Shown here: positions 39,026 through 57,977 of the stretch, piece by piece
Position numbering within the stretch: position 1 is the first letter of the stretch
Layout of the letters: each line of letters opens with the position of its first letter
NCBI GenBank assembly: GCA_020440645.1
Contig: JAGRNR010000009.1
Coordinates: forward strand, 5,092-69,091
Origin: a bacterium
Lineage (GTDB): Bacteria; 4484-113; JAFGCY01
Direction of reading: 5' to 3'
DNA: 64,000 nt
The notes under the pieces: generated by a model
Seen by the model: the letters and a program-made list of their open reading frames with translations, nothing else
Databases searched by the model: none
What the model was told of the DNA's origin: nothing
Position numbers and translations under genes: made by a program

Positions 39026-40836
39026 GCATGCTGCTGACGGTGTTTGACCTGCTGAGCCTGCTGGCCGTGCTGTCTGCACTGTGGCTGGCGGCAGCCAGGC
39101 GGATTGCCGGCCTGCGGCGTGACTACCTGTGGTGCCTGATCATCCTGCTGGTGGTGCTGGGTCTCAACTTCCTCAGCAACCTGCTGGACAACAGCGGGCT
39201 GAGCCCCTGGCTGGAGCGCTTCGAGGACTACCCCGGACTGCTGCAGCCGGTGTTCTGGGGCATCCTCCTGATGAGCCTGGTGCAGGACCGCGCCCTGCGC
39301 CGCACCGAGCTCTCTGAACAGCGGCTGCGCGGCCTGCTGGACGCGATGCGTGACGGGGTTGCCACTATTGACCCGGGTGGCGTGTTCCGCTTTGCCAACC
39401 CGGCGGCCGCGGAAATCCTCGGGGTTGCCCACGGCAGCCTTAGCGGCCGCAGTCTGGACGAGTTCTGGCTGGCTACCGAATCGCATACTTGCCGGATGCT
39501 GCCACATTCCCCGGGCCAGGATTACAGCGCCTACGAATGCGGCATCCGCCATGGCAGCGGCGACAGCCTCGTGCTGCTGCTGCAGGTCTCGCCGATCCCG
39601 GGCCAGCCCCGCCAGCGCCTGCTGTTCATGCATGATGTGACCCCGCTGCGCCGGGCCGAGCACAGCCTGCAGCAGGCCCAGGCCCAGCTCGGACAGGCCC
39701 AGCGGCTGGAGGCGATCGGCACGCTGGCCAGCGGCATCGCCCATGACTTCAACAACATCCTGTTCGCGATTTCCGGCAACAGCCAGATCGCGCTGGATAC
39801 TGAGGGACTGACCGTCGATGCGCGGGAGAGCCTGCGCGAGATCGACACCGCCAGCCGCCGCGCCTCCGACCTGGTGGCGCAGATCCTCAACTTCAGCCGC
39901 AGCGAGAAGAGCCGGACACGGGACCTGTTGCCACTTCCGGTTGTCAAGGAAGTGCTGCGCCTGCTGCGCTCCACCGTGCCGCCGCAGGTCAGCATCCAGC
40001 TCAGCCATGACGAATCGACGTGCCGGATCCATGCCGACCCGACCGACCTGCACCAGCTGCTGATGAACCTCTGCACCAATGCGATCCAGGAGATGGCGGT
40101 GGAGGGCGGGACGCTGCGGGTCCGGTTGGAGTGCAGCAATCCACCGCCGACACTGGCCGAGCGGGGAATGCTGCAGCCTAAACCACACCTGATGCTCAAG
40201 GTCAGTGACACGGGGGGCGGTATTCCACCGGATGCGCTGCCGCACATCTTCGAGCCCTTCTTCACGACCAAGCCAAGCGGTGAGGGCACCGGTCTAGGGC
40301 TGTTCGTTGTCAGCGGGATCGTCAAGCGCCTGCAGGGACAGATCGAGATTGACAGCGAACCGGGCCATGGCAGCAGCTTCACGGTCTGGCTGCCGCTGTC
40401 CAGCGGGGCCGCTGATGCCGACGATGCCGGGCCGGGGCAGGCCACCGGCCGCGGCCGGGGCCGGCTGCTGGTGGTTGACGACGAGCCGGCGGTCAACCGG
40501 GTGCTGGCGCTGATGCTCGGCCAGCTCGGCTACAAGGTGACAACCTATAGCGACAGCTACCGCGCGCTCAGTGAGTTCCAGACCAACCCGGAGCAGTACG
40601 ACCTGCTGCTGTGCGACATCTCGATGCCGGGCCTGCGCGGCGATGAACTGGTGAAGCGGATACGCTCCGTTCGCCCAGGCCTGCCGGTGGTGCTGTGCTC
40701 CGGCAATCCGGATGTTCTGCCTCCGGGCAGTGCAACTGAACTGGGTGTGCATGCAGTGCTTAAGAAACCGGTTGACAAGCCACAGCTGGCGGATTGCATC
40801 GCCGAGGCACTTGGCAGTAACCGTGCACAGGCCTGA
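39022..40836 (+). CDS. Hybrid sensor histidine kinase (TM sensor, PAS, HisKA, HATPase_c and C-terminal receiver domains)
   Basis: ORF 38983..40836. H-box IGTLASGIAHDFNNIL. HATPase G-boxes DTGGGIP and GEGTGLGL. REC domain LLVVDDEPAVNRVL ... DLLLCDISMPG ... K. PAS-like segment before the H-box. Confidence 0.8.
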   Translation: MSMLLTVFDLLSLLAVLSALWLAAARRIAGLRRDYLWCLIILLVVLGLNFLSNLLDNSGLSPWLERFEDYPGLLQPVFWGILLMSLVQDRALRRTELSEQRLRGLLDAMRDGVATIDPGGVFRFANPAAAEILGVAHGSLSGRSLDEFWLATESHTCRMLPHSPGQDYSAYECGIRHGSGDSLVLLLQVSPIPGQPRQRLLFMHDVTPLRRAEHSLQQAQAQLGQAQRLEAIGTLASGIAHDFNNILFAISGNSQIALDTEGLTVDARESLREIDTASRRASDLVAQILNFSRSEKSRTRDLLPLPVVKEVLRLLRSTVPPQVSIQLSHDESTCRIHADPTDLHQLLMNLCTNAIQEMAVEGGTLRVRLECSNPPPTLAERGMLQPKPHLMLKVSDTGGGIPPDALPHIFEPFFTTKPSGEGTGLGLFVVSGIVKRLQGQIEIDSEPGHGSSFTVWLPLSSGAADADDAGPGQATGRGRGRLLVVDDEPAVNRVLALMLGQLGYKVTTYSDSYRALSEFQTNPEQYDLLLCDISMPGLRGDELVKRIRSVRPGLPVVLCSGNPDVLPPGSATELGVHAVLKKPVDKPQLADCIAEALGSNRAQA

Positions 40837-40884
40837 CGGGCGGGCGCGTCAGTGCTTTGTGATATACATGGGGAGGAGGCAGGC

Positions 40885-41250
40885 ATGGCGAAGAAGAAGT
40901 TCGAGGATGTGGACCCGCAGGTGCTGGCGGCCTACATGAAGATGATCGGGGGCGTTGAAGGGGTCGAGGCCAAGGGGGCCGCCGCGCCGTACACCTCCCT
41001 GAATGGCAATATGTACTCCAGTATCTCGAAGTTCAACGAGATCGGCCTGCGGCTGGCGAAGGATGAGCGCGAGGCCTTCCTCGAGAAGTACGACACCCGG
41101 CTCTACCACTCCATCCCCGGATATGTGCAGCGGGAGTATGTCACCGTGCCGCCTGCACTGTTTGGCAACACACGCACTCTGCGCAGCTGGTTCCGGAAGT
41201 CCTACGACTACGTCTCATCACTGCCGGCGAAGCCCACGAAGAAGAAGTAG
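40885..41250 (+). CDS. Hypothetical protein (about 121 aa)
   Basis: ORF 40852..41250. Likely start MAKKKF, preceded by GGAGGAGG. Lys-rich termini. No assignable motif. Confidence 0.5.
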   Translation: MAKKKFEDVDPQVLAAYMKMIGGVEGVEAKGAAAPYTSLNGNMYSSISKFNEIGLRLAKDEREAFLEKYDTRLYHSIPGYVQREYVTVPPALFGNTRTLRSWFRKSYDYVSSLPAKPTKKK

Positions 41251-41320
41251 CGGGAAGGATTTCGGCGCTCGCTTGTCGGCAGTAGCGGGCGCGCTTGGCG
41301 ACGCCATGGAGTGATTGCCG

Positions 41321-41471
41321 CGAAGCAATGAGTGATGGTGTGTTGGTCTGCAGACCAACAGGGCCCTGTGGCTCTCAAGAGCCACACTCCGCCGCGTGCG
41401 CGCAGCCACGCGGAAAGCCCCTCTGCAATGAGCAATGCGGAGCAAGCAATGAGCCCGACGACACTCATTGC
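41321..41471. other. Cluster of four consecutive hairpins/palindromes with a thrice-repeated GCAATGAG motif in a 490-bp convergent intergenic spacer (candidate structured RNA or repeat element)
   Basis: TTGGTCTGCAGACCAA (perfect 16-bp palindrome, 41343-41358). GTGGCTCT-ca-AGAGCCAC (41368-41385). CGCGTG-cgcgcagc-CACGCG (41393-41412). GCAATGAG-cccgacgaca-CTCATTGC (41445-41470). GCAATGAG also occurs at 41325 and 41425. Confidence 0.35.
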
Positions 41472-41741
41472 CAGACTCTGCGGCTCTGCGTTCACCAATA
41501 TCGCTCCACCCCAGCCGCATTGCCAACCAAGTGCAGGCTAGCCTCAGCCCAGTCAAACTGGAGAATTGTCAACACAGAGCCACCGAGCGCACAGAGTTTT
41601 CTGATCAGCTCCAGTCCCCGCATTTCCCTGACTTCGCTGCATCCCCTCCCAATCGCGGCTGGGCCGCGCCGGTTCTTCCGGTAACCCTGACCCTTGTTCT
41701 TCAGGTTGACTGATTCACTGGGAAATCCGAGACGAGCCAGT

Positions 41742-42539
41742 CTATGAATACAGAAGATCCTCAAAATCCTCCGTCAGCTCTCCATGGAAAGTAGGGTAGT
41801 CAACCCTCCGGACATTGCGCCGCCATGGTCGCGGCCCCAGCTCGCTGCTTGTAAGCAGCTTGAGGTGAAGCGGATCGACATCTGTTGCCAGGCTGCATTC
41901 CGATCCGATGATCCCGTCTTTGTCCATGAAGTCCGTGTTTGGCCAGATATTGAAACTGCGACCGGATGACGTCCGGATCGAAGTCGGATTGAAGCCCATG
42001 GCAATCTCCATGGCATTGTAGCTTTCCCTGCGGATATCCAGCGGCAGGGCAAACCTTGACTGCTCAACATGCGCTGCATCCGACAATGCAGACTCTCCCT
42101 TTTGCCATTCGGGAAGGGGCATCGAGGCACTCAGGATGACAAAGGCCTTCTCTTGCCAGACGCCCGCATGATCCCTGACACAGCATGGGAACATCAGCCA
42201 CTTCATCCGCCGTTGAAACGCCGCGAATCCCACGCTGCCAATGTTCAGCAGCAGTTCCGCAAGCACTTTCGCCGGTTTCTCCATACCGGCATCCCAGGAC
42301 CTGGCCTTATCCAGGCAGCCTGCCGGAATTCTGAGCAGAAATCCCGATGCATGATCGAGATACCAGTCGGCATTGCATCTGGTGCAGATGTGCAGGATTC
42401 CGCGTTGCCAGCTTTCCCTGCGGATGATGAGCTTGTGCAGTTTGAAGTATGGGGTTTCCTCCCGGACACTTGCAGGAGGATCAGGATCCCAGGGGAGTGA
42501 TTCCCTGACCTGACAAGGGCAGCTGGCCTTGATACTCAT
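41742..42539 (-). CDS. Hypothetical protein (265 aa) with an N-terminal Cys cluster (CPC...CTRC), co-oriented downstream of nuoA-nuoB
   Basis: Protein-like composition, 20 nt downstream of the nuoB stop. The four Cys in SCPCQ...HICTRC suggest a small zinc-ribbon. Not a ferredoxin-type CxxCxxCxxxCP motif. Confidence 0.5.
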   Translation of the reverse strand: MSIKASCPCQVRESLPWDPDPPASVREETPYFKLHKLIIRRESWQRGILHICTRCNADWYLDHASGFLLRIPAGCLDKARSWDAGMEKPAKVLAELLLNIGSVGFAAFQRRMKWLMFPCCVRDHAGVWQEKAFVILSASMPLPEWQKGESALSDAAHVEQSRFALPLDIRRESYNAMEIAMGFNPTSIRTSSGRSFNIWPNTDFMDKDGIIGSECSLATDVDPLHLKLLTSSELGPRPWRRNVRRVDYPTFHGELTEDFEDLLYS

Positions 42540-42558
42540 GGTTCATGGTAATGCGATC

Positions 42559-43011
42559 CTACCGCCACGCAAACCGCTCATCCAGCGCACCCGAGAGGAT
42601 GCGCTCCCGGAGCGCGATGATGCCGTCGATCAGCTGCTCGGGCCGCGGCGGGTCGCCCGGCACATAGATGTCCACTGGTACGATGCGGTCCACTCCCCCG
42701 TCCACCGCATAGCTGCCGTCGAAGGGCGCGCCGCTGATCGCCCCCGCGCCAAACGCCATCACGAAGGCCGGGTCGGCCATCGAGGCATGCAGCCGGCGGA
42801 TCACCGGGGCCATCTTGTTGTTGACGACGCCGGCCACGATCAAAAGGTCCACCTGGCGCGGGCTGGGGCGCATCACCTCAGAGCCGAAGCGCGCGATGTC
42901 ATAGCGCGGCGAGATCGCGCTGAACAGTTCCAGCGTGGCGTAGTCCAGTCCGAGCATCAGCGGCCACAGGGAATGGGCACTGGCCTCGCGGATGAGGTCC
43001 TTCAGACCCAT
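42559..43011 (-). CDS. nuoB: Complex I 20-kDa subunit NuoB-like, with all four N2 cluster cysteine ligands replaced
   Basis: Clear NuoB scaffold (SLWPLMLGLDYATLELFSAISPRYDIARFGSEVMRPSPRQVDLLIVAGVVNNKMAPVIRRL ... RIVPVDIYVPGDPPRPEQL). The canonical CC, C (GACATSG) and C (PGCPP) positions read DY, G (GAGAISG) and D (PGDPP). Confidence 0.8.
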   Translation of the reverse strand: MGLKDLIREASAHSLWPLMLGLDYATLELFSAISPRYDIARFGSEVMRPSPRQVDLLIVAGVVNNKMAPVIRRLHASMADPAFVMAFGAGAISGAPFDGSYAVDGGVDRIVPVDIYVPGDPPRPEQLIDGIIALRERILSGALDERFAWR

Positions 43012-43400
43012 TCCAGCGCTCCCTTGCGGTAGGCATAGGCCCAGCCGACGAGCAGGATGCCGAGGAACACGAACATCTCGCCCAGTGAGGCGGCCCCGAT
43101 CGGCGTGAAGGTGATGTCGTCATTGCCGAACACCAGCAGCCGGAAAGCGGTGGCCCAGGGGAAGATGAACATGATGTCCACGTCGAACATGAGGAACACG
43201 ATCGCGAGGATGTAGAAGCGGATGTTGAAGCGCACCAGCGCATCGCCGGTGGCCTGCGCGCCGGATTCATAGCTCAGGCGCTTGAGGAAGTTCGGCCGCC
43301 GCGGACGCCACAGGTTCAGGAAAGCGAATGCCAGCCCGATCAGCACCGCCCCGCCCAGCAGGAAGAGTGCCACCCAGTTGTACTGTCCAACGGTGTTCAT
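43002..43400 (-). CDS. nuoA: Complex I subunit NuoA
   Basis: 132 aa, three TM. The NuoA motif is FDVDIMFIFPWA. Overlaps nuoB by 10 nt. Confidence 0.85.
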   Translation of the reverse strand: MNTVGQYNWVALFLLGGAVLIGLAFAFLNLWRPRRPNFLKRLSYESGAQATGDALVRFNIRFYILAIVFLMFDVDIMFIFPWATAFRLLVFGNDDITFTPIGAASLGEMFVFLGILLVGWAYAYRKGALEWV

Positions 43401-43453: not shown

Positions 43454-45553
43454 CTAGTTCACGGTGATGAACTTGTAGGCGATGCCCGTTTCCCCGAGCG
43501 AATCCGTCACCCGCACGGCAAGTGTGTAGAATCCGGGTGAGTTGAGGGTAGTGTTGATCGTGCTGTTCTCGAAGGTGGCTTCGAAGAAGCCGTCACCGTC
43601 CAGGTCATAGTCATAGATAACCGACAGCCCGTCCTCATCGTCCGAGCTCAGGCTGGCATCCAGCATTACCAGCACCGGTGCAAACCCAGTGTCCGGTGAT
43701 CCAGTCAGCACGGCGTTGGGCGGATGGTTCTCCAGACAGGTCAGCTTGTAGGCGCCCGGGCCGGTCTCGATGGCGGAACCGGGCACGAACACCTTCAGGT
43801 AGTAGCGCCCGGCGGCCGGCAGGCTGAAGTTGATGTATTCACGGTCCACGTTGTCAATCGATTCAATCAACGGAACGACCAGGTCTGACTCATGGTACAG
43901 AGCCAGTGAAAGGTCGACCGTCGCCGAACTGAAGTCCACCCAGAAGCTGGCGGTGGTGGCCCGGTCGGCATCGATCGCGTACCAGTCCTCGGTGTCGCTG
44001 CCGCCGACGCTAGCACTCCAGTCGCGGATATGCTTCGCGTAGTTGAGGAAACCGCCGAGGCTGTCCGCCTCCGTCTCGGCATTGTTGGGCTCAGTCTCCT
44101 GCGGGTCCACCCCGTTTGACACGATCACCTTCAGGCTGGCGGTGGCCTCCCGCTCACCACTGTCGGTGATGCGCACCGTTGGCGTGAATTCGCCGGGCAG
44201 CGTGTAGGTGATGTCACCACCGGGGTTCAGGCCGAGGTCATAGTCAAACGTGCCGTCACCCTCGAAGTCCCATTCGTACTTGACGATGTCATTGTCGGGG
44301 TCCACGAGGCCGCTGGTGTCGATGTAACGGATGATTCCGTTCTGCAGGCAGTAGTAGTCGATGCTCAGTTCAGCAGTGGGCGGGTTCTCACCGCTGATCG
44401 GCGTGATCGTGACATCCGTCGTGGCCGTGGCACTTTCCCCGAAGAAATCGATCACCATCACCCCGACGGTGAAGGTGCCGGCCTCGATGAATTCGCGGTA
44501 GGCGAAGGGGACCGGGGTCTGCAGCTCATGGAACCCGTCGTCGTCAAGGTCCCAGCGGTAATTGACGATGCCGCCATCCGGGTCCATGCTGTTGAAGGCG
44601 TCAAAGTTGATGGCCTGGGGCAGCGGACCGCCGTTCGGCAAGGCCACGATGTCCGCGATCGGTGGCAGGTTGCCCGGTTCACCGGTCACATTGATCGTGG
44701 CGGTGGCTTCGCCGGTGCCACCTTCGTTATCAACCACGCGCAGGGTGCAGGTGAAGGTGCCGACATGGTCGTAGTCGTGGCTGGGGGTCGGCCCGAGGTC
44801 ACCGGGTGTGAAGTAGATTGGGTCCTCGAATGACCAGTGGTACTCGGCGATCGTGCCATCCAGGTCGGAGCTGGCGGAGCCGTCAAACCCTGTGGTGAAG
44901 AAGTACTGGCCGCTGTCCTGGGCCACGGTGAAGCTGGCGGTCGGGGCGAAGTTGCCACCGAGCCGCACACGGGTCAGCTCGAAGCTGCCGCTGCCGGTCA
45001 GCAACACGCAGCAGTAGATCGCGTCGAAGTTCGAGAAATAGCCGTCCAGCGAGCCGAAGTCGAAGTGGTCATCGTCATTGCCAAGCTGCCATTTCCAGCG
45101 GCCGCTGCCGTAATCCGTGATGCCGACGTAGTACTCGCCGGAGTCCGGGCGCACGCCCCACTGCAGGTCGACCTGAGCCTCCCTTGCGAATCCCGGCAGG
45201 TGGTAACCGTAGATGCCCCAGCTCACATCCAGCTTCGGCGGGTTGGCGGCGGGGTCCCAGTCCGGGGCCATCAGCAGGCTGTCCCCGAACACGATCGCAT
45301 TCTCGCGGCTGCCGGGCGTGATGATCTCCGCACCCTTGCGGATGTAGTCCGCCGGTGTATCACTGAAGCTGCGCCCAACGGCGGGCAGCTCGGCCGGGGC
45401 TGGAAGCTGGGCAAGCAGGTCCTGCGGCAGTTCAACCGGACCGGACTGGCGCTCAGGCGTGGCAGCCTTTTCCTGCAGGTTGGCAGCGCCGGATGAACAG
45501 GCTGCCAGGCAGAATAGGCAGCCTGCCAGCAGAAGGGCAAATGAAGCACGCAT
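43454..45553 (-). CDS. Surface lipoprotein, paralog 1 of 4: novel N-terminal domain, PKD-like repeats, pre-peptidase C-terminal (PPC)-like domain
   Basis: Lipobox LLLAGCLFCLAACSSG. PKD-like blocks (YHWSFEDP ... NYRWDLDDDGFHE ... KYEWDFEGDGTFD). PPC-like block ETEPNNAETEAD ... DTEDWYAID ... YYLKVF. GAGGA RBS. Confidence 0.75.
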   Translation of the reverse strand: MRASFALLLAGCLFCLAACSSGAANLQEKAATPERQSGPVELPQDLLAQLPAPAELPAVGRSFSDTPADYIRKGAEIITPGSRENAIVFGDSLLMAPDWDPAANPPKLDVSWGIYGYHLPGFAREAQVDLQWGVRPDSGEYYVGITDYGSGRWKWQLGNDDDHFDFGSLDGYFSNFDAIYCCVLLTGSGSFELTRVRLGGNFAPTASFTVAQDSGQYFFTTGFDGSASSDLDGTIAEYHWSFEDPIYFTPGDLGPTPSHDYDHVGTFTCTLRVVDNEGGTGEATATINVTGEPGNLPPIADIVALPNGGPLPQAINFDAFNSMDPDGGIVNYRWDLDDDGFHELQTPVPFAYREFIEAGTFTVGVMVIDFFGESATATTDVTITPISGENPPTAELSIDYYCLQNGIIRYIDTSGLVDPDNDIVKYEWDFEGDGTFDYDLGLNPGGDITYTLPGEFTPTVRITDSGEREATASLKVIVSNGVDPQETEPNNAETEADSLGGFLNYAKHIRDWSASVGGSDTEDWYAIDADRATTASFWVDFSSATVDLSLALYHESDLVVPLIESIDNVDREYINFSLPAAGRYYLKVFVPGSAIETGPGAYKLTCLENHPPNAVLTGSPDTGFAPVLVMLDASLSSDDEDGLSVIYDYDLDGDGFFEATFENSTINTTLNSPGFYTLAVRVTDSLGETGIAYKFITVN

Positions 45554-45600
45554 CTTTATTCCTCACTGCGCCCGGATACTCTCCAGCAAGCTGGAGGGGC

Positions 45601-45618
45601 AGCACAGAATTCTAACTG
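45601..45618 (-). promoter_or_regulatory. Putative promoter element (TAGAAT -10-like box within GTTAGAATTCTGTGC) upstream of lipoprotein paralog 1
   Basis: Minus-strand sequence cagTTAGAATTCTGTGCtg about 55 nt upstream of the ATG. Near-identical to the element upstream of paralog 3 and similar to that upstream of paralog 2. Confidence 0.35.
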
Positions 45619-45675
45619 AAAGAATCACCAAACTGAGCTTCGCGGCAAGCAGGTCCCAGCTACCCCTGGCACGGT

Positions 45676-47790
45676 TCAAATGGGTAAGGCAGTTACTATG
45701 ACGAAGTCTGTATCCGCGAGGCCCCACTCATCGATTACGCGCACGCTGACGACGATTGCACCGGGTACTGTGATCTGCGTGTCATAGGTGGGCTGGAACT
45801 GGCCGGTCACTTCAAAGATCCCGTCACCGTCGACATCAAACTGGTATTCAGTGATGTAGCCCATCTCAACTGTGCTGGCAGATGCATCCAGCGAAATGTC
45901 AAATGGAACCGACCCAACGAGCGGATCAGCGGACAAAGCGGCGTGCGGGCCGTCATAGTTGCGGCAGCGGAATGTGTAGTCACCGGGGCCCTTCGCCAGT
46001 GCTGAGGGATCTATGCTCACACGGATCAGGTACTGGCCGGCGGAGGGCAGCACGAACTTGAGGATTTCACTATCCAAGATGCCGTGTGCGCTGGCCAATG
46101 GGTTGTCGGTGTCGCCGGCGGAATACAGGTCCAGGCGCATGTCTATCTCGCTGCGGAGGAAATCCGCGACGAACGCCACTGGACCGCTGCGGTCGGATTC
46201 GAAGGAGTACCAGTCCGCGCTGTCGCCGCCGCCCTCATCCAGTGAGCCCTTCCAGTTGCAGATCCCCTTGGAGTAGTTCATGAAGCCGGTGAACTCCTCG
46301 GCCTCGCCCGGGGTACCGTTGGGTTCAGTTTCAGCCAAGCCGGAATTCGGCCCGATCCGCAGCGGTATGCTGGCAACGTCTGTCCGGCCGCCGCTGTCCG
46401 TCACGCGGAATGTCGCGTTGAAAGTCTGCCCTGTCTGGGCATAGGTCGCAACGAATTCCTCACCGGGGGCGAAAGAATAATCGAATATGCCATCACCCTC
46501 CAGGTCCGTCTCGAACGAGACGATGTCATTGTCGGGGTCGCTGCTCTCGCTCCAGTCTATCCTGAAGGCACCCGGTGAGTTGAAGCTGTAGTCGGACTTG
46601 ACGACGATGGTCGGCGGCTCAGTACCATCAACCGGGTCAATCACCACCGTGGTTGAGGCGGTGCTAAAGCTGCCCTGGTTGTCAATCGCCATCACGGACA
46701 CCTCATAGCTGCCGGGTACGGCGAAGAACCACTTCTGCACGGCACTGCCAAAAACCTCGAAATGCCCGTCTCCGTCGAAGTCGAAACGGTAGCCGGCTAT
46801 CGAGCCGTCCGTGTCGCTGCTGCCGCTGCAGTCGAAGTTGATCCACTGCGGGACCGGTCCACCGCTGGTGTCAGGCACGATCGAGGCAAGCGGTGCAGCG
46901 TTGCCATCCACCAGGGCGACCGAAATCGGGATGCTGAGCTCGGCGGTGGCTCCCTCATTGTCCGTCAGGCGCAGTGTGCAGGTGTACTCGCCCGCGTGGT
47001 CGTAAGTCCAGAAAACCACCGGGGCCGGGTACCGGAAATCCGTGTAGACCGGATCCTCCATTGACCATTCGTAGCCTGCAATGCTGCCGTCCGGATCGTG
47101 GCAACCCGAGGCGTCGAACTGGACCTCCAGAGAGCCTGTTCCACTGGTCTGGTTCGGGATCAGGCTGGCCACGGGCGGCAGGTTCTCCCCCAGACGCAGC
47201 CGGCTGAGATTGAAGTTGCCCTTGTCCGCGACCAGGATGGTGAAATAGATGTCGCCATTCCCGGAGAAGTAGCCGTCAAGGCTACCGAAATCAATGATGT
47301 CCTGATCCGTGCCCTGGAACCATTGCCAGCGATTGCTGCTGAAGTCGCTGACACCGATGTAGTGGCGCGCTCCGTCCGGCCTGGGGCCTTCCCACAGTAC
47401 CTGCAGTTCCGGCTGGCGCTGGAAATCAGTGATGTTGAAACCTTAAATCGCCCAGCTCAGCTCACGTGTCGGCGGCTCGGCCACGGGCTCGTAATCAGCA
47501 ACCATCACAAGCATGTTCCCGACAATGCTCGCATTGGCGAATGCATCAGGCTGATAAGTCTGATATCCATCCCGCAGGAAGTCCTCCGGGACATTGCTGG
47601 CGCTGCGCTGCTGCTGAGGCAGGCTGTCCAGTCCCGGCAGCCCGTCAGCCAGCGAGGGACTGAGCTGTACAGCCTCAGCCTGCGCGGAAACGGGCAGGTC
47701 AGCCGCCTGCTCCGGATGGGCCGGCTGGCTGCTGCATGAAGCCGCGAGCAGCAGGCAGCCTGCGCACGCGATGGCGAGAAGAGCTTTCAT
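45676..47790 (-). pseudogene. Surface lipoprotein, paralog 2 of 4, interrupted by a single in-frame TAA at 47443-47445
   Basis: ORFs 47443..47790 (signal/lipobox MKALLAIACAGCLLLAASCSS) and 45676..47172 lie in the same frame. The stretch 47173..47442 translates without stops (GFNITDFQRQPELQVLWEG...). The TAA replaces the Tyr of the SWGIYG(F/Y) block conserved in the other three paralogs. Confidence 0.6.
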
Positions 47791-47835
47791 CTTTATTCCT
47801 TGAACCTGCCTGGTTCCTTATGGCAGTGCAGGAGG

Positions 47836-47849
47836 CTGGGAAAATTCTA
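47836..47849 (-). promoter_or_regulatory. Putative promoter element (GTAGAATTTTCC) upstream of lipoprotein paralog 2
   Basis: Minus-strand agTAGAATtttccc about 55 nt upstream of the ATG. The shared spacing and the shared AGGAATAAAGATG RBS/start context with paralog 1. Confidence 0.3.
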
Positions 47850-47903
47850 CTCGATCAGTCTCAATCATTGACTTTCCCAGTAAAGCAATCCGCCAGCGAT
47901 CAT

Positions 47904-49997
47904 TCAGGGGGCGATGCCCGTCACTGTCACCGTGGCGATTGACTCCATTCCCAGCATGTCCTGTACCTTGACGCCGAGCTCCTGCGGTCCTTCCCAGCTG
48001 ACGGTGCCAGTACCGAGCCATCCGCCGGGCTCGCTCTCGAAGATCCCGTCGCCATCCATGTCAAAGAAGTAGATCAGGCCCTCCAGGTAACGGTCATAGC
48101 TGCGGCCCGCGTTGAGCACAACCTCGGTCCCCGTCTCCACTACCGTTGCGGAGGCCGTGACAAAAGCCACCGGCTTGGAGGGGTCCCAGAAGTCCAGCTT
48201 GTAGCCGCTGTCCTGCCCGGCCTCGCCTGCCTGCTTCGTGAACACGCGCAGGAAGTAGTCCCCCGGCGCCGTAATGAGAACGGACATAAACTCGTTGTCG
48301 GTATCCGAGTAGCTGAAGAACAGCGGGTTCACCAGGTCAAGAGGGCTGTACATCTCAATGTCCATGTCCATGAAACTGTGCGTGAAGATCAGGTTGAACC
48401 ACAGCTGGCCGTTGTGCGCGGCATGGATCACATACCAGTCCTCGGTATCCTCAGCGAACTTGAGCTGGCCGGGAAAGTCGCGCACCCGCACACACTCGTT
48501 GCCAAAACTGCCCAGGCTGATCGCCGTCTCCGGGCTGTCATTCGGTTCTACCTCCGGCTGGCCGGAGAATGGCGTGACCATCACTGGACAGGTTGCCGTG
48601 TCACTGCGTCCGCCGCTGTCAGTGACCCTCACGGCGACGTTGAACACGCCGCCATCCTGGGAATAGGTCACGTTATTCACGGGATCGAGCCCTGAATCAA
48701 CGTCGAACGTGCCGTCACCCTCGAAGTCCCATTCGTACTTCACGATGTCATTGTCAGGGTCATAGGATCCCTGTGCGGTGAAGTACCGTGCACCCGCAGT
48801 GTTGTCATACCAGTAGACGGCCTCCAGCTTTGCCACCGGAGGCTCCGTGCCCTCCACGGGCAGCACCTCGATCTGCATCGTGGCCGTGTCGACGGCACCG
48901 AACTCATCAATCACCATCACGCTGGGGTTGTAGGTGCCGGCTGCGATGTACAGAGCCTTGAACACCGGGCTGCCAAAAGTGAACTGCTCGAAGTACCCGT
49001 CCTCGTCAATGTCCCAGCGGAATGTCATGAAACCGTTCTCCGGATCCGTGCTGTCCTGTGCATTGAGCGTGACGGAAAGCGGAACCAGGCCGGATACCAC
49101 ATCAGATTCAGAGTAGATATCGGCCACAGGCGGGTCATTGCCAGGCACGGCGGTGACGCTGATCGGAATGACAAATTCCGTCATTCCGCCTTCGAGGTCA
49201 TGCGCCCTGCCTATGCAGTCGTACTCGCCGACATGGTCATACTCCCAGTACAGGAACGGACCGGCGGGCTCGAAGATCGGCCCACCCTCGGCGGACCATT
49301 CAAAGAAGGTCAGAGTGCCATCCGGATCGTAGCTGGCTGAGGCATCGATGTTGACCGTCAGCTTGCCCTGGCCGCTGTCGTTGTCAATCGTGTAGTCGAT
49401 CACGGGCGGGAAGTTGCCGCCGAGGCGCAGCCTGCTGAAGGTGAACTGGCCCTCCGTTGCCAGCAGCACCACCACATACAGGTCGCCGTTGGCAGAGAAA
49501 TAGTCAGCCAGCCCCGGGAAGTCCACGGTCCCGTCCGCCGTACCCTGGCGCCACTGCCAGTGTCCGCTGGAGTAATCACTGACCCCGATGTAGATGCCGG
49601 AGCTGGCGGGCGCAGTGCCATTCCACTTTGCCTGGATCTCCGTGCCGCGCTGGTAGTCTGCGATGTTGAAACCGTAGATCCCCCAGCTCAGTCCATGCAT
49701 CGGCGGGTCGCCCTGCGGATCATAGGTCGGGCTCATCGAGAGCTTGTCACCGGTCACCTCGGCATTCATCTTCGCCGATACCTTGTAGATGTCGGCTCCC
49801 GTGCGGATGCAGGCTTCCGGCGTATTGCTGGTACTGCGCTGCATGGCAGGCAGGGCAGAAATGGCCGGCAGCTGCGATTCAAGCTGCGGCAGGACAGCGT
49901 CGCCTGCCGGTTGGTTTACCTGGCCGCCACTTCCGCTGGAGCAGGCTGCCAGCAGCAGCATCGCTCCGGCCAGCAGGCCACTGAGCTGTCTGAACAT
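47904..49997 (-). CDS. Surface lipoprotein, paralog 3 of 4 (697 aa)
   Basis: Lipobox LLLAACSSGSGG. Same N-terminal domain (TPEACIRTGADIY ... LSWGIYGFNIADYQRG ... YIGVSDYSSGHWQWRQG ... RLRLGGNFPP), then PKD-like and PPC-like blocks (EVEPNDSPETAI ... EDWYVI ... YFLRVF). Confidence 0.75.
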   Translation of the reverse strand: MFRQLSGLLAGAMLLLAACSSGSGGQVNQPAGDAVLPQLESQLPAISALPAMQRSTSNTPEACIRTGADIYKVSAKMNAEVTGDKLSMSPTYDPQGDPPMHGLSWGIYGFNIADYQRGTEIQAKWNGTAPASSGIYIGVSDYSSGHWQWRQGTADGTVDFPGLADYFSANGDLYVVVLLATEGQFTFSRLRLGGNFPPVIDYTIDNDSGQGKLTVNIDASASYDPDGTLTFFEWSAEGGPIFEPAGPFLYWEYDHVGEYDCIGRAHDLEGGMTEFVIPISVTAVPGNDPPVADIYSESDVVSGLVPLSVTLNAQDSTDPENGFMTFRWDIDEDGYFEQFTFGSPVFKALYIAAGTYNPSVMVIDEFGAVDTATMQIEVLPVEGTEPPVAKLEAVYWYDNTAGARYFTAQGSYDPDNDIVKYEWDFEGDGTFDVDSGLDPVNNVTYSQDGGVFNVAVRVTDSGGRSDTATCPVMVTPFSGQPEVEPNDSPETAISLGSFGNECVRVRDFPGQLKFAEDTEDWYVIHAAHNGQLWFNLIFTHSFMDMDIEMYSPLDLVNPLFFSYSDTDNEFMSVLITAPGDYFLRVFTKQAGEAGQDSGYKLDFWDPSKPVAFVTASATVVETGTEVVLNAGRSYDRYLEGLIYFFDMDGDGIFESEPGGWLGTGTVSWEGPQELGVKVQDMLGMESIATVTVTGIAP

Positions 49998-50030
49998 GCG
50001 CTTGTCCTCGCACTTTACCGGGTTCCGTCC

Positions 50031-50046
50031 GCACAGATTCTAACCC
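50031..50046 (-). promoter_or_regulatory. Putative promoter element (GTTAGAATCTGTGC) upstream of lipoprotein paralog 3
   Basis: Minus-strand gggTTAGAATCTGTGCgga about 50 nt upstream of the ATG. Confidence 0.35.
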
Positions 50047-50091
50047 AGGACAAACCAGGACAAGCAGTTGCATCGCAGTCCGGCCTGCAGC

Positions 50092-52914
50092 CTAGGCTTC
50101 CGGCAGGACCTCCATCATGTAGTCCTGCTCGAGCTTCGGGTTCGAGCTGGCCCACACGTAGGCATTGATGTAGTAGGTACCGGGCGCGGTGAAGTTGTAC
50201 GTGATCGACTCGTTGTCAGTGGTGCTTGTCGATGAGCCGATCTGGGACGTGCCGTCGGTGTCATACAGCTTCAGGTCGAGGTCGGACAGCGCATCGGTGA
50301 AGTACATGTTGATCACATAGCTGCCCGGTGTCACGATCTGGATCTTCATCCAGTCCGACTCGTCGCCATCCAGCGGCCCGTCCGGCCCGAGGTTGCCGAA
50401 CCAGCCGGTGAAGTCCGTGCCGGGGAACATGTTGCCGGTCAGGTAGTCGTCATTGTCCTCAACCTCGTCGTAGGTCAGGCTGACCGAGATATCCACCGAG
50501 TCGGTGCCACTGGCACCGTACTGGTCCGTCACGCGCACCATCGCGCTGACTGTGCCGGCCGAGTAGTAGGTATGGGTCACGAAGGGGTCGGTGGTGGTCT
50601 CGTCCCAGGTGCCGTCTCCGTTGTAGTCCCACTCGAACTTCGTCAGGTCATGCCCGTCCGGGTCGGTGCTGCCGCTGGCATCGAAGTCCACCACAAGCGG
50701 GGCCTCGCCACTCAGCGGGCTGGCGGTCAGGACCACATTCGGGTTGCCGTTGATCGAGTTGACGTTTACGGTCTTCGTCACCTTGCCACCCTGGTCGTCG
50801 GTCACGCGCACCTTGACCGCCACCGTGCCGGAAACCGTCATGTCGCCCATGAAGACTGAGGTCGTGCCGGTGTCCTGCTCGAAGCTGCCGTTGCCATCGA
50901 CGTCCCACTCGTACTTGGTGATCGTGCCGTCCGGGTCGTAGCTGCCCGTCGCATCCAGCGTGACCGGGAAGGGCACGTTGCCACTGAGCGGGCTGACGTT
51001 GAAGGTGACCACCGGCAGGCGGTTCACGCTGGCATCGAAGGTGTAGTCCGCCGGACCGCGGTCAGTCGCGCTGGCGTAGATGTAGATCCGGATGAAGTAG
51101 GTGCCGGTCTTGTCAGCCGGGATCGAGTAGCTGATCGACTCCGTGTTGCCCGTGCCGGTGGAGGATGCCACCGAGGTGCTCAGGTCGGATTCATGGAACA
51201 GGCGGATGTCAATGTCAGCCTCGGCATCGATGAAGGCCAGGTTCAGCTGCACCTCCAGTGGCTCGGGTGCCGCGAACACAAGCCAGTCCTCCTCGCTGCC
51301 GTCATAGCCGCCCACTCCGAGGTTGCCACGCCAGCCCTGGATGCCCTTCGCATAGCCGCCATAGCCCGGCAGCTGGTCAGCGGAAGCGCTGTCGTCATTC
51401 GCCTCGGTCTCGTGGTAGTTGCCGGCGCTGTCAACGATGAGCGTGGCCTGGAAGGTGTCATTCAGGCCGCCGCTGTCGGTCACGCGCAGGACCGGGGTGT
51501 AGGTGCCGATGCCGGGGTAGGTATGCTGGGCAGTGGCCGTGCCGCCGTTGTCAAGCTCGTAGGTTCCGTCACCGTCCCAGTCGAACTCGTACTTGACGAT
51601 GTCGTCGTCCGGGTCAGTAGAGACGGAGGCGTCGAAGTTGAACACGCCGTCATCGGTGCGGAAGCCGTAGTCCACCAGCATCAGTGCGTCCGGCGGGCTC
51701 TGCACCCCGACCTCCATCACCTCGATCAGCAGGTTGTCAGTCGCCGTGCTGCCGAGGTCGTCAGTCACGCGAAGCTTGATGTCGTAGCTGCCTGGATCGT
51801 TGAACGTTGTCGATGTGCTGTCGACCACGCCGGTGTCCTTCTCGAAGCTGCCGTTGCCGTCGAGGTCCCATTCGTACTTGACGATCGTGCCGTCCGGGTC
51901 GGAGCTGCCTGTGCCGTTGAACAGCACGGTGAGCGGTGCGGAACCGGTGGTCTTGTTGGCGCCGAGCACCGCCGTCGGCGGGTCGTTGTCAATGACAGGG
52001 GTGACGCTGACAACGGTCTCCGCGATGCGCTGGGCGCCCTCATTGTCAGTCAGCTGCACGCGCACGAGGAAGTTGCCTGTCTGGTTGTAGACATGCTGCG
52101 TGGTCTGGTCGGTACCGGGGGCACCGAAGCCGTCACCGGTGAAGTCCCATTCGAAGCTTGTGATGTCGCCGTCGATGTCATAGCTCGCACTGGCGTCGAA
52201 GTTGACGGTCAGCGGCACGGTGCCGCTGGTCGTGTCAGCCTGCAGGTCCGCCACCGGTGCGATGTTGTCACCGAGGCGCAGCTGGCCGAGGCTGTAGCTG
52301 CCCTGCCCGGTCAGCACCACGGCGATGTACAGGGTGTCCGTCGGGGAGAAGAAGTCCGCCAGGTTGCCGAAGTCCATCGCCGTGCCGGCGGCCGGTCCCT
52401 GGAACCACTGCCAGCGGCCGGCATCGAAGTTGCTGATGCCGATGAAGTAGTTGCCGGCGGGCGGCGTGGTGCCATCCCACCACAGCTGCAGGGTGCCGGG
52501 GCTGACATAGCCGGTCAGGCCGAAGCCGTAGACCGCCCAGGCCAGGTCGCTGGTGGGCGGGTTGGCGGTGCGCACCCAGTCCGGCGTCATCACGAGGAAA
52601 TCCCCGTCCACACTGGAGAAGGACTTCATTTCCGGCGTGATCAGCTGCGAACCAAAGCGGATGAAGTCCTCCGGCGCATTGCTCGAGCTGCGCTCGACGG
52701 CCGGCAGGTCTGAAAGGTCCGGCACCCCGTCCATGGCCACGGTGATCTCCGGCGCGGGCTTGGCATGTTCGATGCTGTATTCGAGGACCGGCTGTTCCTC
52801 ATTGAACTCGAACTTCTCGCGCTTGAAGAGTACCTGGTCTCCGCCCGACCCGCCTCCGCAGGAGGTGAGCAGGATTGAGACGGCGATGGCCCAGACATAT
52901 AGTGCATTTCTCAT
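50092..52914 (-). CDS. Surface lipoprotein, paralog 4 of 4 (940 aa, extra PKD-like repeats)
   Basis: Lipobox ILLTSCGGGSGG. Conserved N-terminal domain (SNAPEDFIRFGSQLI ... LAWAVYGFGLTGY ... YFIGISNFDAGRWQWFQGP ... QLRLGDNIAP). Five to six PKD-like blocks (TSFEWDFTGDG, VKYEWDLDGNGSFE, VKYEFDWDGDGTYE, TKYEWDVDGNGSFE, TKFEWDYNGDGTWD) and a PPC-like block. Confidence 0.75.
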   Translation of the reverse strand: MRNALYVWAIAVSILLTSCGGGSGGDQVLFKREKFEFNEEQPVLEYSIEHAKPAPEITVAMDGVPDLSDLPAVERSSSNAPEDFIRFGSQLITPEMKSFSSVDGDFLVMTPDWVRTANPPTSDLAWAVYGFGLTGYVSPGTLQLWWDGTTPPAGNYFIGISNFDAGRWQWFQGPAAGTAMDFGNLADFFSPTDTLYIAVVLTGQGSYSLGQLRLGDNIAPVADLQADTTSGTVPLTVNFDASASYDIDGDITSFEWDFTGDGFGAPGTDQTTQHVYNQTGNFLVRVQLTDNEGAQRIAETVVSVTPVIDNDPPTAVLGANKTTGSAPLTVLFNGTGSSDPDGTIVKYEWDLDGNGSFEKDTGVVDSTSTTFNDPGSYDIKLRVTDDLGSTATDNLLIEVMEVGVQSPPDALMLVDYGFRTDDGVFNFDASVSTDPDDDIVKYEFDWDGDGTYELDNGGTATAQHTYPGIGTYTPVLRVTDSGGLNDTFQATLIVDSAGNYHETEANDDSASADQLPGYGGYAKGIQGWRGNLGVGGYDGSEEDWLVFAAPEPLEVQLNLAFIDAEADIDIRLFHESDLSTSVASSTGTGNTESISYSIPADKTGTYFIRIYIYASATDRGPADYTFDASVNRLPVVTFNVSPLSGNVPFPVTLDATGSYDPDGTITKYEWDVDGNGSFEQDTGTTSVFMGDMTVSGTVAVKVRVTDDQGGKVTKTVNVNSINGNPNVVLTASPLSGEAPLVVDFDASGSTDPDGHDLTKFEWDYNGDGTWDETTTDPFVTHTYYSAGTVSAMVRVTDQYGASGTDSVDISVSLTYDEVEDNDDYLTGNMFPGTDFTGWFGNLGPDGPLDGDESDWMKIQIVTPGSYVINMYFTDALSDLDLKLYDTDGTSQIGSSTSTTDNESITYNFTAPGTYYINAYVWASSNPKLEQDYMMEVLPEA

Positions 52915-53076: not shown

Positions 53077-56000
53077 ATGCCTGTCCGGCTGGCTGGACAA
53101 GCAATGAAACGAAGCATCTTCACTCCTATGATCCTGTTTGTGCTGCTGATTGGCGCATGCGCCTCACAGCAGCAGCTCAGTGCTGAACCGGGTGCAGGCG
53201 GCACTACGGTGTTCGATAACGACGCAGGCAGCCCGGGCCTCGTGGATGACCCCGGCATGCTGGCCCTGCCCGGTGAGCCGGGCAACCTGGCCGGACTGCG
53301 CAATGTCGCGGACCCGGAGGCTGAGCTGGAACTGCCGCGGCGCACGGCGCGGGCCGGGCAGGACTTTGCCGCCAACCGCCTGGTGGTGGTCTGGGAGAAC
53401 CAGCCGGACCCGGCGGTGCAGCAGCAGTACATGGGCGGCGGCCCGCAGGCGGACCTCAGGCGGGCGACGGACAACCATCCGCTGGTGGACCACCCCTTCT
53501 ACCGCCGTGTCAGCCACAACTTCGCCCAGCACTACGGCCTCAGTGAGTTCGGCCGGGTGTTCTACAAGGATGTCAACTTCACTGCATATGAAGTGCCCGG
53601 CCTGACGGATGTCAGCCAGCTGGACGCGCTGATGCAGAAGCTGCTCAGCGAGAACCGGGGCCTCGTGCGCGAGGTGAACTACGACTTCTACGTGGACATC
53701 AGCCAGACGGTGGAAACTGAGCCGGTGCCGCTTGATCAGGAGCGCATCCAGCAGGTCATCCAGTCCTCTCCGGCTGCACCACAGCGCATGCGTGAGCAGA
53801 ACCGCAGCACGAGCGCTGCCCCGAATGACCCGATGCACCTGAACCTGAGCGGCAGCGACGGCGGCACCTGGGCAAACTGGCGCATCGGTGCGGTCGACGG
53901 CCAGGCCTGGGACAGCGGGGTGGGCAGCCATGACGTGGTGGTGGCGGTGGTGGACACCGGTGTGCGCTACACGCATGAGGACCTCGCTGACAACGCGATC
54001 GAGCCCGCCGCGGAATTCCCGTACAACGAACCGGGCATCCTGACGGACGTGATCAACAAGGACAACGACCCGTTTGACGACCACGGCCACGGCACCTACT
54101 GCTCCGGCATCGTCGGCGCCGTTGGCAACAACGGGCTCGGGCTGGCCGGTGCCAACCAGCAGGTCAGCATCCTGCCGGTCAAGGTGCTCAGCGGCGGCGG
54201 CAGCGGCAGCGAGACCCAGGTGGCGGAAGGCATGCTGCTGGCGGACTACCTCGGGGCGGACATCATCAGCATGTCGCTCGGCGGGGATTTCCCGGACCGC
54301 ATCATGCAGCTGGCCGCCAAGCAGTGCGACAGTGACGGAGTGCTGGTGGTGGTGGCCGCCGGCAACAACAACTGGGGCGGGCTGTTCTACCCGGCCTACT
54401 ACCCGGAATGCCTCGGGGTCGGTGCGACCACACTTGTCAACGACTCCAATGACCAGGACTTCAGCCAGGTGGACGGCGAGATCCCGACGGCTGACCGGTA
54501 CGACGCGCGCGCCAACTTCTCCAACTACGGCAGCTGGGTGGACATCGCTGCCCCCGGCGTGCAGGTGCGCTCGACATCAAACGGCTCGGACACTTCATAC
54601 GGCGCAAGTGGTGCCGGCACCAGCTTCGCCTGTCCCTACGTGGCCGGCTGCGCAGCGCTGCTGTGGGCGCATATGGGGCCGGACAAAAGCAACCATGAGG
54701 TGCGCGGCATGCTGCAGGGCAGTGCCACCGTGATGGACCACCTCAACAACGGTGCCAACCCGCGCGGCTTCATTGACAACGACACCAACGGCACGGTGCG
54801 CTTCGTGAACGTCTGGGAGGCGATCAAGCTGTACGATGCCGGGCCCTATGAAGCGCCGGCTGTCAGCTGGACCAGCCCGCTGGAGGGAGCGAGCGTCAGC
54901 GGCCTGACCGACCTGCAGCTGGAGATCACGGGCGGCAGCGGCAACATCCTAAAGGTGTCCTTTGAGACCCCGACGCGGCACCTCGGCACGGTGACCGAGG
55001 AGACTGGCGGCTTCTGGCAACTGAGCTGGGACAGCGCGTTTGAGTTCAACGGCGGGCAGACCATCACGGCGACGGTGACGGACGACGTCGGGCACATCAT
55101 CAGCCTGCCGCTGCATGTCAACTGTGACAATGCGCACATCGTGCCGGAGTGGCAGGAGGGCTTCGACGGCCTGGCGGATGACACGCTGCCGGCGGGCTGG
55201 TCCGTGCTGGATGGCAACGCCGGTACCAACAACACCATCTGGGGCGCTGACAACTCAGATGGTGGCGATGCCTCCCCTTCGATGCACTCCAGCGGCAGCA
55301 CGGGGAACTACGCCCCCAACAGCAATGACTGGCTGTATGCGCCGGTGATCGACCTGACAGGCGTTGCCAGCGCCTCGCTCGAGTTCAACTACCTGCACCG
55401 GATGGCCAATGACGGCGGTTTCCTGTTCATCACGGCGGATGACGAGACCTACGCCGGCGACGGATTCTTCGGCGGTGGCAACCCGGACTGGGACAGCTAC
55501 AGCTTTGACCTGACGCCGTTTTGCGGCGCGGAAGTGCGCATCTTCTGGGTGATCGACTGCAATGGCGGCAACCAGGCCGGCGGGATGTGGATTGACGACG
55601 TGCACATCACCGTGCCGGAGGGCACGCCGCCGACCGTCAGCATAGACAGCCCGCTGGCCAATGCCAGCGTGGACGGCATCGTGGACGTGCAGCTGACCCT
55701 GAGCGATGATACGGTGGCGGTCGAACTGATCGGCCTGCCGGTCAGTGCCCCGCCGCTGCTGTTTGACAGCATCCCGGACAACGACCCCGAGAACCCGACG
55801 AAGACATTCACGGCCACATGGGACAGCCGCCAGACCGGCACCGGAAATGTGCTGCTGCGCGCGCGGGCCTATGATGATGAAAGTGACAACGGCGGGCTGG
55901 ATGACCTGGCGGCCGAGGACAGCGTGGTGCTGGACGTGACAAACCCCGTGGCCGGCCCCGGCTGGCTGGAGGACTTCGAGGATGTGGTGGACCTCGGCGG

Positions 56001-56775: not shown

Positions 56776-57900
56776 TCACAGGCTGTCCGGGCCGAATGGG
56801 ACTACAGCATCGCCGTCAATCCAGTGCAGGCCATGCTCGCCGGTGCCCACCCAGGTCCGGCCCGCCTTGTCACGCTGGACCGTCATGGTGAATGCGCCAT
56901 TGCAGATCGGATACTTGTGCACCTTGCCGGCGGCGTACTGCCAGACTCCATCAGTGCCGCAGGCCAGCCACATCGTTCCGTCCGGATCCTGTGTGACTGA
57001 GGCAAAGTAACTGAAGTTGTCAGCATTGTCAGTGCCTGCATCCGGCAGGCCCGGCAGCTTGCTGTAGGCAAGCTGGCTGAATCCAGCTTCCAGCCTGGCT
57101 TCAGCGGAGAACTCAAAGCGCTGCCGCGTGTTACAGATCCAGAAGGCGCCATCCCGGTCCTCGAAGATGGAGCGCAGGCCGAAGTTTCCGCCAGCCGGGG
57201 TGTTCACCAGTTCGTCCTCGTACAGCCAGCTGAACTCCCGGCCATCCCAGCGGCAGGCTCCAAGCGAAGCCGTCCCGAACCAGACATTGCCAGCTCGGTC
57301 CCTGTAAATGGTGTAGACACCGGCCGGGTCATAGCCGAGGTTCGGGTTGCGCCTGCGGTAATCCTCCAGTCCGGGAGCCGGCGGCAGATGCAGGCTTATC
57401 AAGCTGTCGCCATCAAACAGGCAGGGATTGTTCCTCGCAGGGTCCAGGATCAGCCAGACCTGCTTGGGCCCTGGTTTGAGGGTGCCCCAGTCCTGGCCGT
57501 AGTCAACAGGTTCAAGCAGCGAGAAGTTCTGTCCATCGAAGCGTGAAAGGCCCCTAGTGGTGGTGATCAGCAGGCCGCCGGAGCCGTCGCCAGTGATGCC
57601 CCGCACATTGTTGCCAGCCAGGCCGTCGGCTTCCGTGTAGTTCGTGATTTCCTGCCCGGCGATCCGGAACAGGCCGCTTTCCGTGCAGCCCAGCCAGTAA
57701 ACGCCATCCGGGTCCTGGTGGATGCACCAGGCGCCCGATCCCACTTCATTGACAATCCGGCCCGGCTGGGAAACGCCTTCGCTGGCAACAGCCGGACTGG
57801 CCAGCGGGCGCTGAGCCCGGGCCAGCAGGTAAACGGATAAGACCAGCAGCAGTGGCAGGACGAGGCCAGCAATGCGCCAGGCTTGGGGTTTATTGGACAT
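56776..57900 (-). CDS. Membrane-anchored beta-propeller protein with two-component-regulator-propeller-like (Y_Y_Y/Reg_prop) repeats and no kinase domain
   Basis: ORF 56776..58209. Likely start MSNKPQAWRIAGLVLPLLLVLSVYLL (or MPIQT, 16 codons upstream). Repeats such as DGVYWLGCTESGLFRI, GNVWFGTASLGACRWDG, DGAFWICNTRQRFEF, DGTMWLACGTDGVWQY and GRTWVGTGEHGLHWIDG. Convergent and abutting the S8 gene. Confidence 0.55.
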   Translation of the reverse strand: MSNKPQAWRIAGLVLPLLLVLSVYLLARAQRPLASPAVASEGVSQPGRIVNEVGSGAWCIHQDPDGVYWLGCTESGLFRIAGQEITNYTEADGLAGNNVRGITGDGSGGLLITTTRGLSRFDGQNFSLLEPVDYGQDWGTLKPGPKQVWLILDPARNNPCLFDGDSLISLHLPPAPGLEDYRRRNPNLGYDPAGVYTIYRDRAGNVWFGTASLGACRWDGREFSWLYEDELVNTPAGGNFGLRSIFEDRDGAFWICNTRQRFEFSAEARLEAGFSQLAYSKLPGLPDAGTDNADNFSYFASVTQDPDGTMWLACGTDGVWQYAAGKVHKYPICNGAFTMTVQRDKAGRTWVGTGEHGLHWIDGDAVVPFGPDSL

Positions 57901-57977
57901 CACAGCGGATTGTATGCGCTGCTGGGTGATCAAGGTCTGGATTGGCATCCCAGTCTGGGCTGAAGTAGAATCTATGC

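Follow-up and report, generated by a model that had tools for sequence, protein, structure and literature searches.

Envelope lipoproteins sharing an unnamed N-terminal domain

Four consecutive genes, designated A to D, in a 64,000-nucleotide stretch of contig JAGRNR010000009.1 (assembly GCA_020440645.1; hereafter the window), from an uncultured bacterium of activated sludge, encode lipoproteins that share an N-terminal domain (N-domain), which is a genuine, widespread and so far unnamed domain family and a candidate for designation as a domain of unknown function (DUF). The overall kind of protein is familiar, namely multi-domain envelope lipoproteins built of Ig-like and binding modules, and the novelty lies in the N-domain family. 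The proteins may be non-catalytic binding lipoproteins anchored to the envelope, with a new domain resembling carbohydrate-binding modules (CBMs) as their membrane-proximal module; this reading is preferred tentatively, with somewhat less than even confidence. The finding by itself opens no long-standing question, but naming the N-domain would give an annotation to a large set of proteins now called 'PKD domain-containing' or hypothetical, in an uncultured lineage known from wastewater and other metagenomes. Its characterization could reveal how surface proteins are organized, or polymeric substrates captured, in this lineage.

The four open reading frames (ORFs) are co-oriented on the minus strand, with intergenic spacers of 94-122 bp (Table 1). 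They have the positions and sizes reported in a preliminary description, which was made from the sequence alone, with the addition that the 704 codons of gene B include an in-frame stop. The products align end to end, and pairwise comparison, one of the checks proposed in that description, gave 34-41% identity over the full length. The product of gene D is identical to NCBI entry MCB1186406.1, annotated as 'PKD domain-containing protein'. A scan for promoters and terminators, which might define the operon structure, yielded only chance-level counts.

The N-domain and its family

Every conserved block by which the N-domain had been recognized is present in the paralog alignment: SSSNAPEDFIRFG, MAPDWDPAANPP, LSWGIYGF, YIGVSDYSSGHWQWRQG, FGSLDGYFS and RLRLGGNFPP. 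The domain is real and common to all four proteins, although its length is about 165 residues instead of the roughly 200 first proposed; the E values of 1e-50 to 1e-54 that a family hidden Markov model gives the three intact copies are far beyond chance. An assignment to some well-known family with high confidence was sought and not obtained: Pfam, NCBIfam and PDB sequence profiles contain nothing to which the domain can be assigned, and structural matches found with Foldseek are weak. Pfam and NCBIfam gave no match to residues 1 to ~210 of the four proteins. With 60 isolated N-domains they returned nothing consistent, even when matches up to E<=1 (Pfam) and E<=0.1 (NCBIfam) were admitted, and among 68 full-length relatives no match extended over the N-domain. 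Likewise, no CBM model matched the 60 N-domains at E<=1 or the 68 full-length members at E<=1e-3. Against the PDB sequence profiles, the only resemblance was a 'WIGL...W.W' segment of ~30 residues shared with Mincle/CLEC chains (E 0.13-1.4). A C-type lectin-like domain (CTLD) was rejected on the E value (>=0.1) and on the predicted structure, which is essentially all-beta with two short helical turns and has no CTLD helices. A degenerate PKD or PPC domain was also rejected (hhalign probabilities of 5.4% and 0.2%, respectively), and the hhalign alignment of the N-domain with PKD domains spans only the domain boundary.

The preliminary description had recommended a search for the N-domain in other genomes. 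An exhaustive HMMER search over 1.84 billion representative proteins found 846 representative clusters at E<=1e-3, 288 of them at E<=1e-10. A word-indexed protein search returned no matches with a profile of the four paralogs and one (P0122) with a 60-sequence profile. In the best 150 members, most of which are 600-900 residues long, the N-domain starts at residue ~40-100, and the exceptions to an N-terminal start are N-terminally incomplete sequences that begin inside the domain. A strict PROSITE-like pattern recognizes a lipobox ahead of the N-domain in 99 of the 124 complete N-termini, and the classical looser pattern does so in nearly all of them.

A PKD domain follows the N-domain directly in 115 of 142 members. 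The commonest remainder in the family is a beta-propeller-like region of ~400 residues, which Pfam recognizes as SBBP, PQQ or DUF5122 in some members only. Architectures of PKD and PPC modules alone, as in the window, are a minority (19 of 150 members). A papain-like C1 peptidase is present in a few members, and in P0011 and P0027 it is inserted between the N-domain and the propeller; none of the 68 members scanned has a glycoside hydrolase attached to the N-domain. Several propeller-type members (P0007, P0009-P0012, P0020 and P0036) end in a motif like 'GGG.(D/E)DALV...P', which the four proteins of the window do not have.

Genome matches to the family all lie in metagenome-assembled genomes (MAGs) labelled 'bacterium' or 'Planctomycetales bacterium', the scan patterns being biased to close relatives. 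Other loci in the same and related genomes contain one to five family genes each, often in tandem and with more distant N-domains. Tandem runs comprise five genes at locus L005 (397-15500) and three at L008 (9677-13543), with another at L007, from which it follows that the family is present in multiple copies per genome and is often arrayed. No conserved non-family partner gene was found beside family members in eight independent loci.

Predicted structure of the N-domain

The N-domain of D was modelled by AlphaFold2 from a 60-sequence alignment as a beta sandwich of ~12 strands, with a predicted local distance difference test score (pLDDT) of 93.9 and a predicted template-modelling score (pTM) of 0.89. 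The 60-sequence alignment was needed, since the paralogs of the window alone gave an unusable model (pLDDT 52). The conserved N-terminal segment 'LPxPxxL...R..S' packs against the predicted sandwich.

A Foldseek search with the N-domain, another of the recommended checks, returned only weak resemblances, with template-modelling (TM) scores of at most 0.47. Against the PDB there was nothing at E<=1e-3 (best E=1.8e-3, TM 0.33-0.47, probability 0.95-1.0), and the best match in BFVD had E=3.9e-4. The neighbours include jelly-roll binding modules (CBM32, CBM6, CBM61, CBM86, CBM29 and a fucose-binding module), the accessory secretion proteins Asp1 and Asp3, Cry toxins (in our reading, probably their domain III), the tails of cyanophages Pam1 and Pan3, and baseplate proteins of phi812. 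Like jelly-roll CBMs and lectin-like modules, the N-domain is a predicted all-beta sandwich of ~130-150 residues, and it too occurs as an accessory part of extracytoplasmic proteins with several domains. Unlike jelly-roll CBMs, to which its TM scores are 0.33-0.47, it has no sequence similarity to them, a fixed place behind the lipobox and no identifiable binding-site residues.

PKD and PPC modules

The PKD-like repeats proposed in the preliminary description were recognized far above threshold in all four proteins: PKD_4 (PF18911; also PKD, PF00801) scored 128 bits in A, 110 in B, 81 in C and 185 in D against a cut-off of 27. E values over the array range from 1e-23 to 1e-55 (A, 1.4e-37; D, 1.7e-55 in five stretches), and PKD motifs of the WDFDGDG type occur at the expected spacing. 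By motifs and alignment together, A, B and C have four PKD domains and one PPC module each, and D has five PKD domains and two PPC modules. The earlier proposal that PKD repeat number is variable thus holds for D, but not among A, B and C, which are identical in this respect.

The PPC-like module proposed for all four proteins exceeds the Pfam threshold (PF04151, cut-off 25.9 bits) in A (28.3) and in D (43.2; E=7.4e-11, two stretches); B is sub-threshold (17.8) and C has no match, though both can be aligned, the module of C with those of the other three proteins. Five residues (E6, E8, N10, D43 and W44) are invariant in the alignment of the five PPC modules. A profile of these modules matches the collagen-binding domains (CBDs) of ColG (5iku, E=1.3e-9; 1nqd, 1nqj and 4hpk, ~1e-4), and the N-terminal E-x-E-x-N-D and D-x-[WY] motifs coincide in the two. 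In CBDs of the ColG type these motifs form the Ca2+ site. The profile matches indicate that the PPC modules of A to D are homologs of the collagen-binding domains found in clostridial collagenases, which depend on Ca2+.

The accessory segments of clostridial ColG and ColH contain the same modules in the same order as A to D, with PKD followed by PPC/CBD, in tandem in D. In contrast to these collagenases, A to D have no M9 or other catalytic domain, are predicted to be lipid-anchored instead of secreted, and possess an additional, unrelated N-terminal domain; the PPC module of C is too divergent for Pfam. Pfam and NCBIfam recognized neither a peptidase family nor another catalytic domain in A to D.

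Lipid anchor and predicted export

A lipobox signal peptide had been claimed for each gene, and all four are classed as lipoproteins by a criterion that combines a basic n-region, a hydrophobic h-region and an [LVI][ASTVI][GAS]-C lipobox with its cysteine within about the first 15-35 residues. The N-termini of A to D have an arginine or lysine within the first three residues, a hydrophobic stretch, and then a lipobox (LAAC in A, AASC in B, LAAC in C and LTSC in D) with Cys19 in every case. Under a pattern like PROSITE PS51257, B, C and D pass and A fails solely through a cysteine at position -4.

The residue at position +2 after the lipobox cysteine is serine or glycine in A to D; in the family it is glycine, serine, alanine or threonine in 90 of 103 members and aspartate in none of the 103, as would be expected of lipoproteins that can leave the inner membrane. 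The proteins are thus presumably exported and seated on the outer membrane or the cell surface. The tether between the lipidated cysteine and the N-domain has a median length in the family of about 23-27 residues and is rich in alanine, glycine, proline and serine.

Proposed role of the proteins

If the binding reading is correct, the flexible Ala/Gly/Pro/Ser tether would hold the N-domain close to the lipid anchor, where it would act as a membrane-proximal binding or anchoring module, like a CBM or lectin, and would position the PKD stalk. In each protein three PKD (Ig-like) domains in a row follow the N-domain as a rod, and the distal PPC and PKD modules beyond them might capture a polymeric substrate, most plausibly a fibrous protein or glycan, for neighbouring secreted or anchored peptidases. 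Such an arrangement would resemble that of the SusE/SusF-like surface glycan-binding lipoproteins of Bacteroidota, in which beta-sandwich domains are likewise strung in a chain, the N-terminal one near the membrane and the binding modules farther out. It differs from SusE/SusF in that there is no SusC/SusD or polysaccharide utilization locus context in the window and no sequence homology, the phylum is different, and the domain that defines the family of A to D is the membrane-proximal one.

Several points weigh against this reading. The fold matches are so weak that 'CBM-like' describes a fold class and not homology. The near-invariant residues W89, W111, W113, L152 and G158 look like residues of the core and not of a binding site, and among more distant orthologs the PKD domains are conserved at least as well as the N-domain. 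The N-domain also lacks two usual traits of true CBMs, a flexible position in the protein and attachment to a glycoside hydrolase, and the link to a protease consists of synteny among close relatives only.

The main rival is that the N-domain binds no ligand but is a sorting or docking handle, recognized by lineage-specific machinery or a scaffold that delivers lipoproteins to the surface or holds them there, with the C-terminal parts as payloads. This is a serious possibility, although it is probably not the correct one. It is favoured by the fixed position of the N-domain, which in essentially every member is strictly N-terminal and a short, fixed distance behind the lipidated cysteine; by the variety of parts that the N-domain, with or without PKD, precedes (PKD/PPC arrays, SBBP/PQQ-type beta-propellers and papain-like C1 peptidases); and by the many copies per genome, often in tandem. 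A comparable logic is known from Slam-dependent surface lipoproteins, the C-terminal domains of the type IX secretion system (T9SS) and dockerins, in which one terminal module is common to paralogs with differing remainders. In those systems, however, the common module is C-terminal, whereas the N-domain is N-terminal, and no translocon, scaffold or other conserved partner gene was found near family members in the eight loci. Payload diversity is also limited: BLAST links ~110 of 120 residual payloads into a single propeller-like class. Ligand binding, moreover, agrees equally well with a fold like that of binding modules.

A broader proposition is that the N-domain marks a system for lipoprotein display peculiar to this lineage, in which it would anchor or sort proteins close to the membrane as a domain of a new class that some partner recognizes. 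This is unlikely, but if it were true, a candidate phylum of the UBP7_A type would place hundreds of lipoproteins, including propellers, C1 peptidases and PKD/PPC binders, on its surface, and the N-domain would be of more interest as a lineage-wide display module.

Relatives, gene order and selection

The DNA of the window is ~95% identical to the closed MAG CP060262.1, 'Planctomycetales bacterium HK-STAS-UBP7_A-1'; this level of identity rules out that the window is CP060262.1 itself. The HK-STAS set of MAGs, which by name includes CP060262.1, was assembled from activated sludge of Shatin, Hong Kong (PMC8518188), and three UBP7 MAGs are reported from a time series of saline activated sludge (PMC8495973). 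UBP7 proper has genomes of 0.8-1.4 Mb and is distinct from the placeholder UBP7_A (PMC11382960). No functional description of the proteins encoded by A to D or of the UBP7_A lineage was found in the literature.

Between a gene for an S8 subtilase and nuoB, the order D-C-B-A is kept in CP060262.1 and in HKST-UBA03, and the order D-C-A is found in MAG AC1.30, from which gene B is missing altogether; the array is partly visible in Ww346. The ratio of nonsynonymous to synonymous substitution rates (dN/dS), which the preliminary description had proposed to determine, was calculated by the Nei-Gojobori method between orthologs in the window and CP060262.1. It was 0.26 for A, 0.21 for B, 0.13 for C and 0.04 for D, with no excess in the N-domain, indicating purifying selection.

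A nonsense codon and a mosaic segment at gene B

Gene B is a recent pseudogene. A TAA codon replaces codon 116, within the block LSWAI[Y]GF of the N-domain, where CP060262.1 (TAC), HKST-UBA03 and the metagenomic representative P0001 have tyrosine; the B ortholog is intact in CP060262.1 and HKST-UBA03. NCBI annotates gene B as two ORFs of 115 and 498 residues (MCB1186404.1 and MCB1186403.1). The truncated product of 115 residues recurs on 8 contigs, which rules out an assembly error, and the five places shown belong to five sample/run accessions; the stop is a real allele that recurs in independent assemblies. The dN/dS of B resembles that of its intact neighbours, and so the inactivation must be recent.

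A segment of ~2.7 kb comprising B and the 3' end of C (45558-48257) is 95-99% identical to HKST-UBA03, compared with 72-84% for the flanking genes A, C and D. This mosaic pattern suggests recent exchange or gain and loss of a B cassette, or else a chimeric MAG contig; the inactivation of B in the population of the window came later.

Age and maintenance of the array

A reading that follows the preliminary description, which had pointed to paralog expansion and adhesin-like proteins under diversifying selection, takes the array for a recently expanded family of surface adhesins or antigens in which repeat variation generates diversity. Tandem lipoproteins built of Ig-like repeats would suit such a family, as would the presence of B in some genomes and its absence from another, the mosaic segment, the nonsense allele, and the difference of one PKD domain between D of the window, which has five, and its orthologs in two genomes, which have four. 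This interpretation is nevertheless improbable. The level of identity among the paralogs marks them as ancient, the array is syntenic with gene order and architecture kept in related genomes, the dN/dS values are low throughout, and the number of repeats differs only in D, the domain counts of A, B and C being identical. Neither recent expansion under diversifying selection nor repeat-number variation as a source of diversity is therefore upheld; the array stems from old duplication, has been kept by selection, and is not an antigenic-variation system.

Flanking genes

The preliminary description also placed the array between secreted proteases. This is correct for one flank, where an S8 subtilase with a lipobox of its own adjoins gene D, but the other flank is occupied by nuoA and nuoB. 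An M28 peptidase is located 7.7 kb from the array. The proximity of these enzymes raises another explanation for the N-domain, as a chaperone-like, propeptide-like or inhibitor-like module tied to the adjacent S8 and M28 peptidases and removed or engaged during maturation. A lipoprotein subtilase is indeed found beside the array in all four related genomes (loci L001-L004), and PPC is, according to its Pfam description, typical of secreted pre-peptidases. The explanation is very improbable, however, in view of the lack of a peptidase domain in A to D, the beta-propeller-like payloads of most members elsewhere, which have no protease nearby, the lack of a match between the N-domain and any inhibitor or propeptide family, and fold matches that are to binding modules. 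Binding by a non-catalytic, envelope-anchored lipoprotein remains the preferred, if tentative, reading.

Table 1. Coordinates of the array genes, their modules and the adjacent genes in the window
Feature	Position	Strand	Description
Gene A	43454-45553	-	699-aa lipoprotein: lipobox, N-domain, PKD x3, PPC, PKD
N-domain of A	44933-45424	-	residues ~44-207; family HMM (hidden Markov model) E=8e-50
PPC (CBD-like) module of A	43748-44113	-	residues 481-602; profile match to ColG CBDs
Gene B	45676-47790	-	704 codons, broken by one nonsense codon
N-domain of B	47164-47658	-	codons 45-209, with the stop inside; family HMM E=2e-9 and 8e-29 for the two halves taken singly
In-frame TAA of B	47443-47445	-	codon 116; replaces Tyr in the N-domain
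Gene C	47904-49997	-	697-aa lipoprotein: lipobox, N-domain, PKD x3, PPC-like module, PKD
N-domain of C	49395-49886	-	residues 38-201; family HMM E=6.6e-54
Gene D	50092-52914	-	940-aa lipoprotein: lipobox (Cys19), tether, N-domain, PKD x3, PPC, PKD x2, PPC
N-domain of D	52246-52743	-	residues 58-223; family HMM E=5.8e-54; sequence used for modelling
PPC modules of D	51049-51426 and 50095-50484	-	equivalents of the PPC module of A
S8 subtilase	53077-56775	+	1232 aa; divergent from gene D; Peptidase_S8 E=6.9e-43; lipobox LIGAC
nuoA-like ORF	43002-43400	-	starts 54 bp downstream of gene A; NuoA-like by direct reading
nuoB	42559-43011	-	next after nuoA; NuoB Pfam match

The complex I genes that begin beside gene A are interrupted (34940-43400). 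After nuoB there is an unassigned ORF of 265 residues (41742-42539); a hybrid histidine kinase/response regulator gene on the opposite strand (38983-40836) precedes nuoC, nuoD and nuoH; and an unassigned ORF of 358 residues (33485-34561) lies between nuoH and nuoJ.

On the other side of the array, beyond the S8 subtilase gene, an ankyrin-repeat protein of 776 residues (57978-60308, plus strand) has the lipobox LLAGC, which is unusual for an ankyrin-repeat protein. It is 87% identical to its ortholog in HKST-UBA03 but only 56% identical to that of CP060262.1, and positions 58757-60135 in the region of its gene have no blastn match in CP060262.1. The start of this gene is overlapped by ~230 bp on the opposite strand by an ORF with Reg_prop (two-component regulator propeller) repeats (56776-58209, minus strand), the true start of which is probably an internal methionine before a hydrophobic segment (MSNKPQAWRIAGLVLPLLLVL...). 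A second large ankyrin-repeat protein, of 797 residues, is encoded at 1628-4021 on the minus strand.

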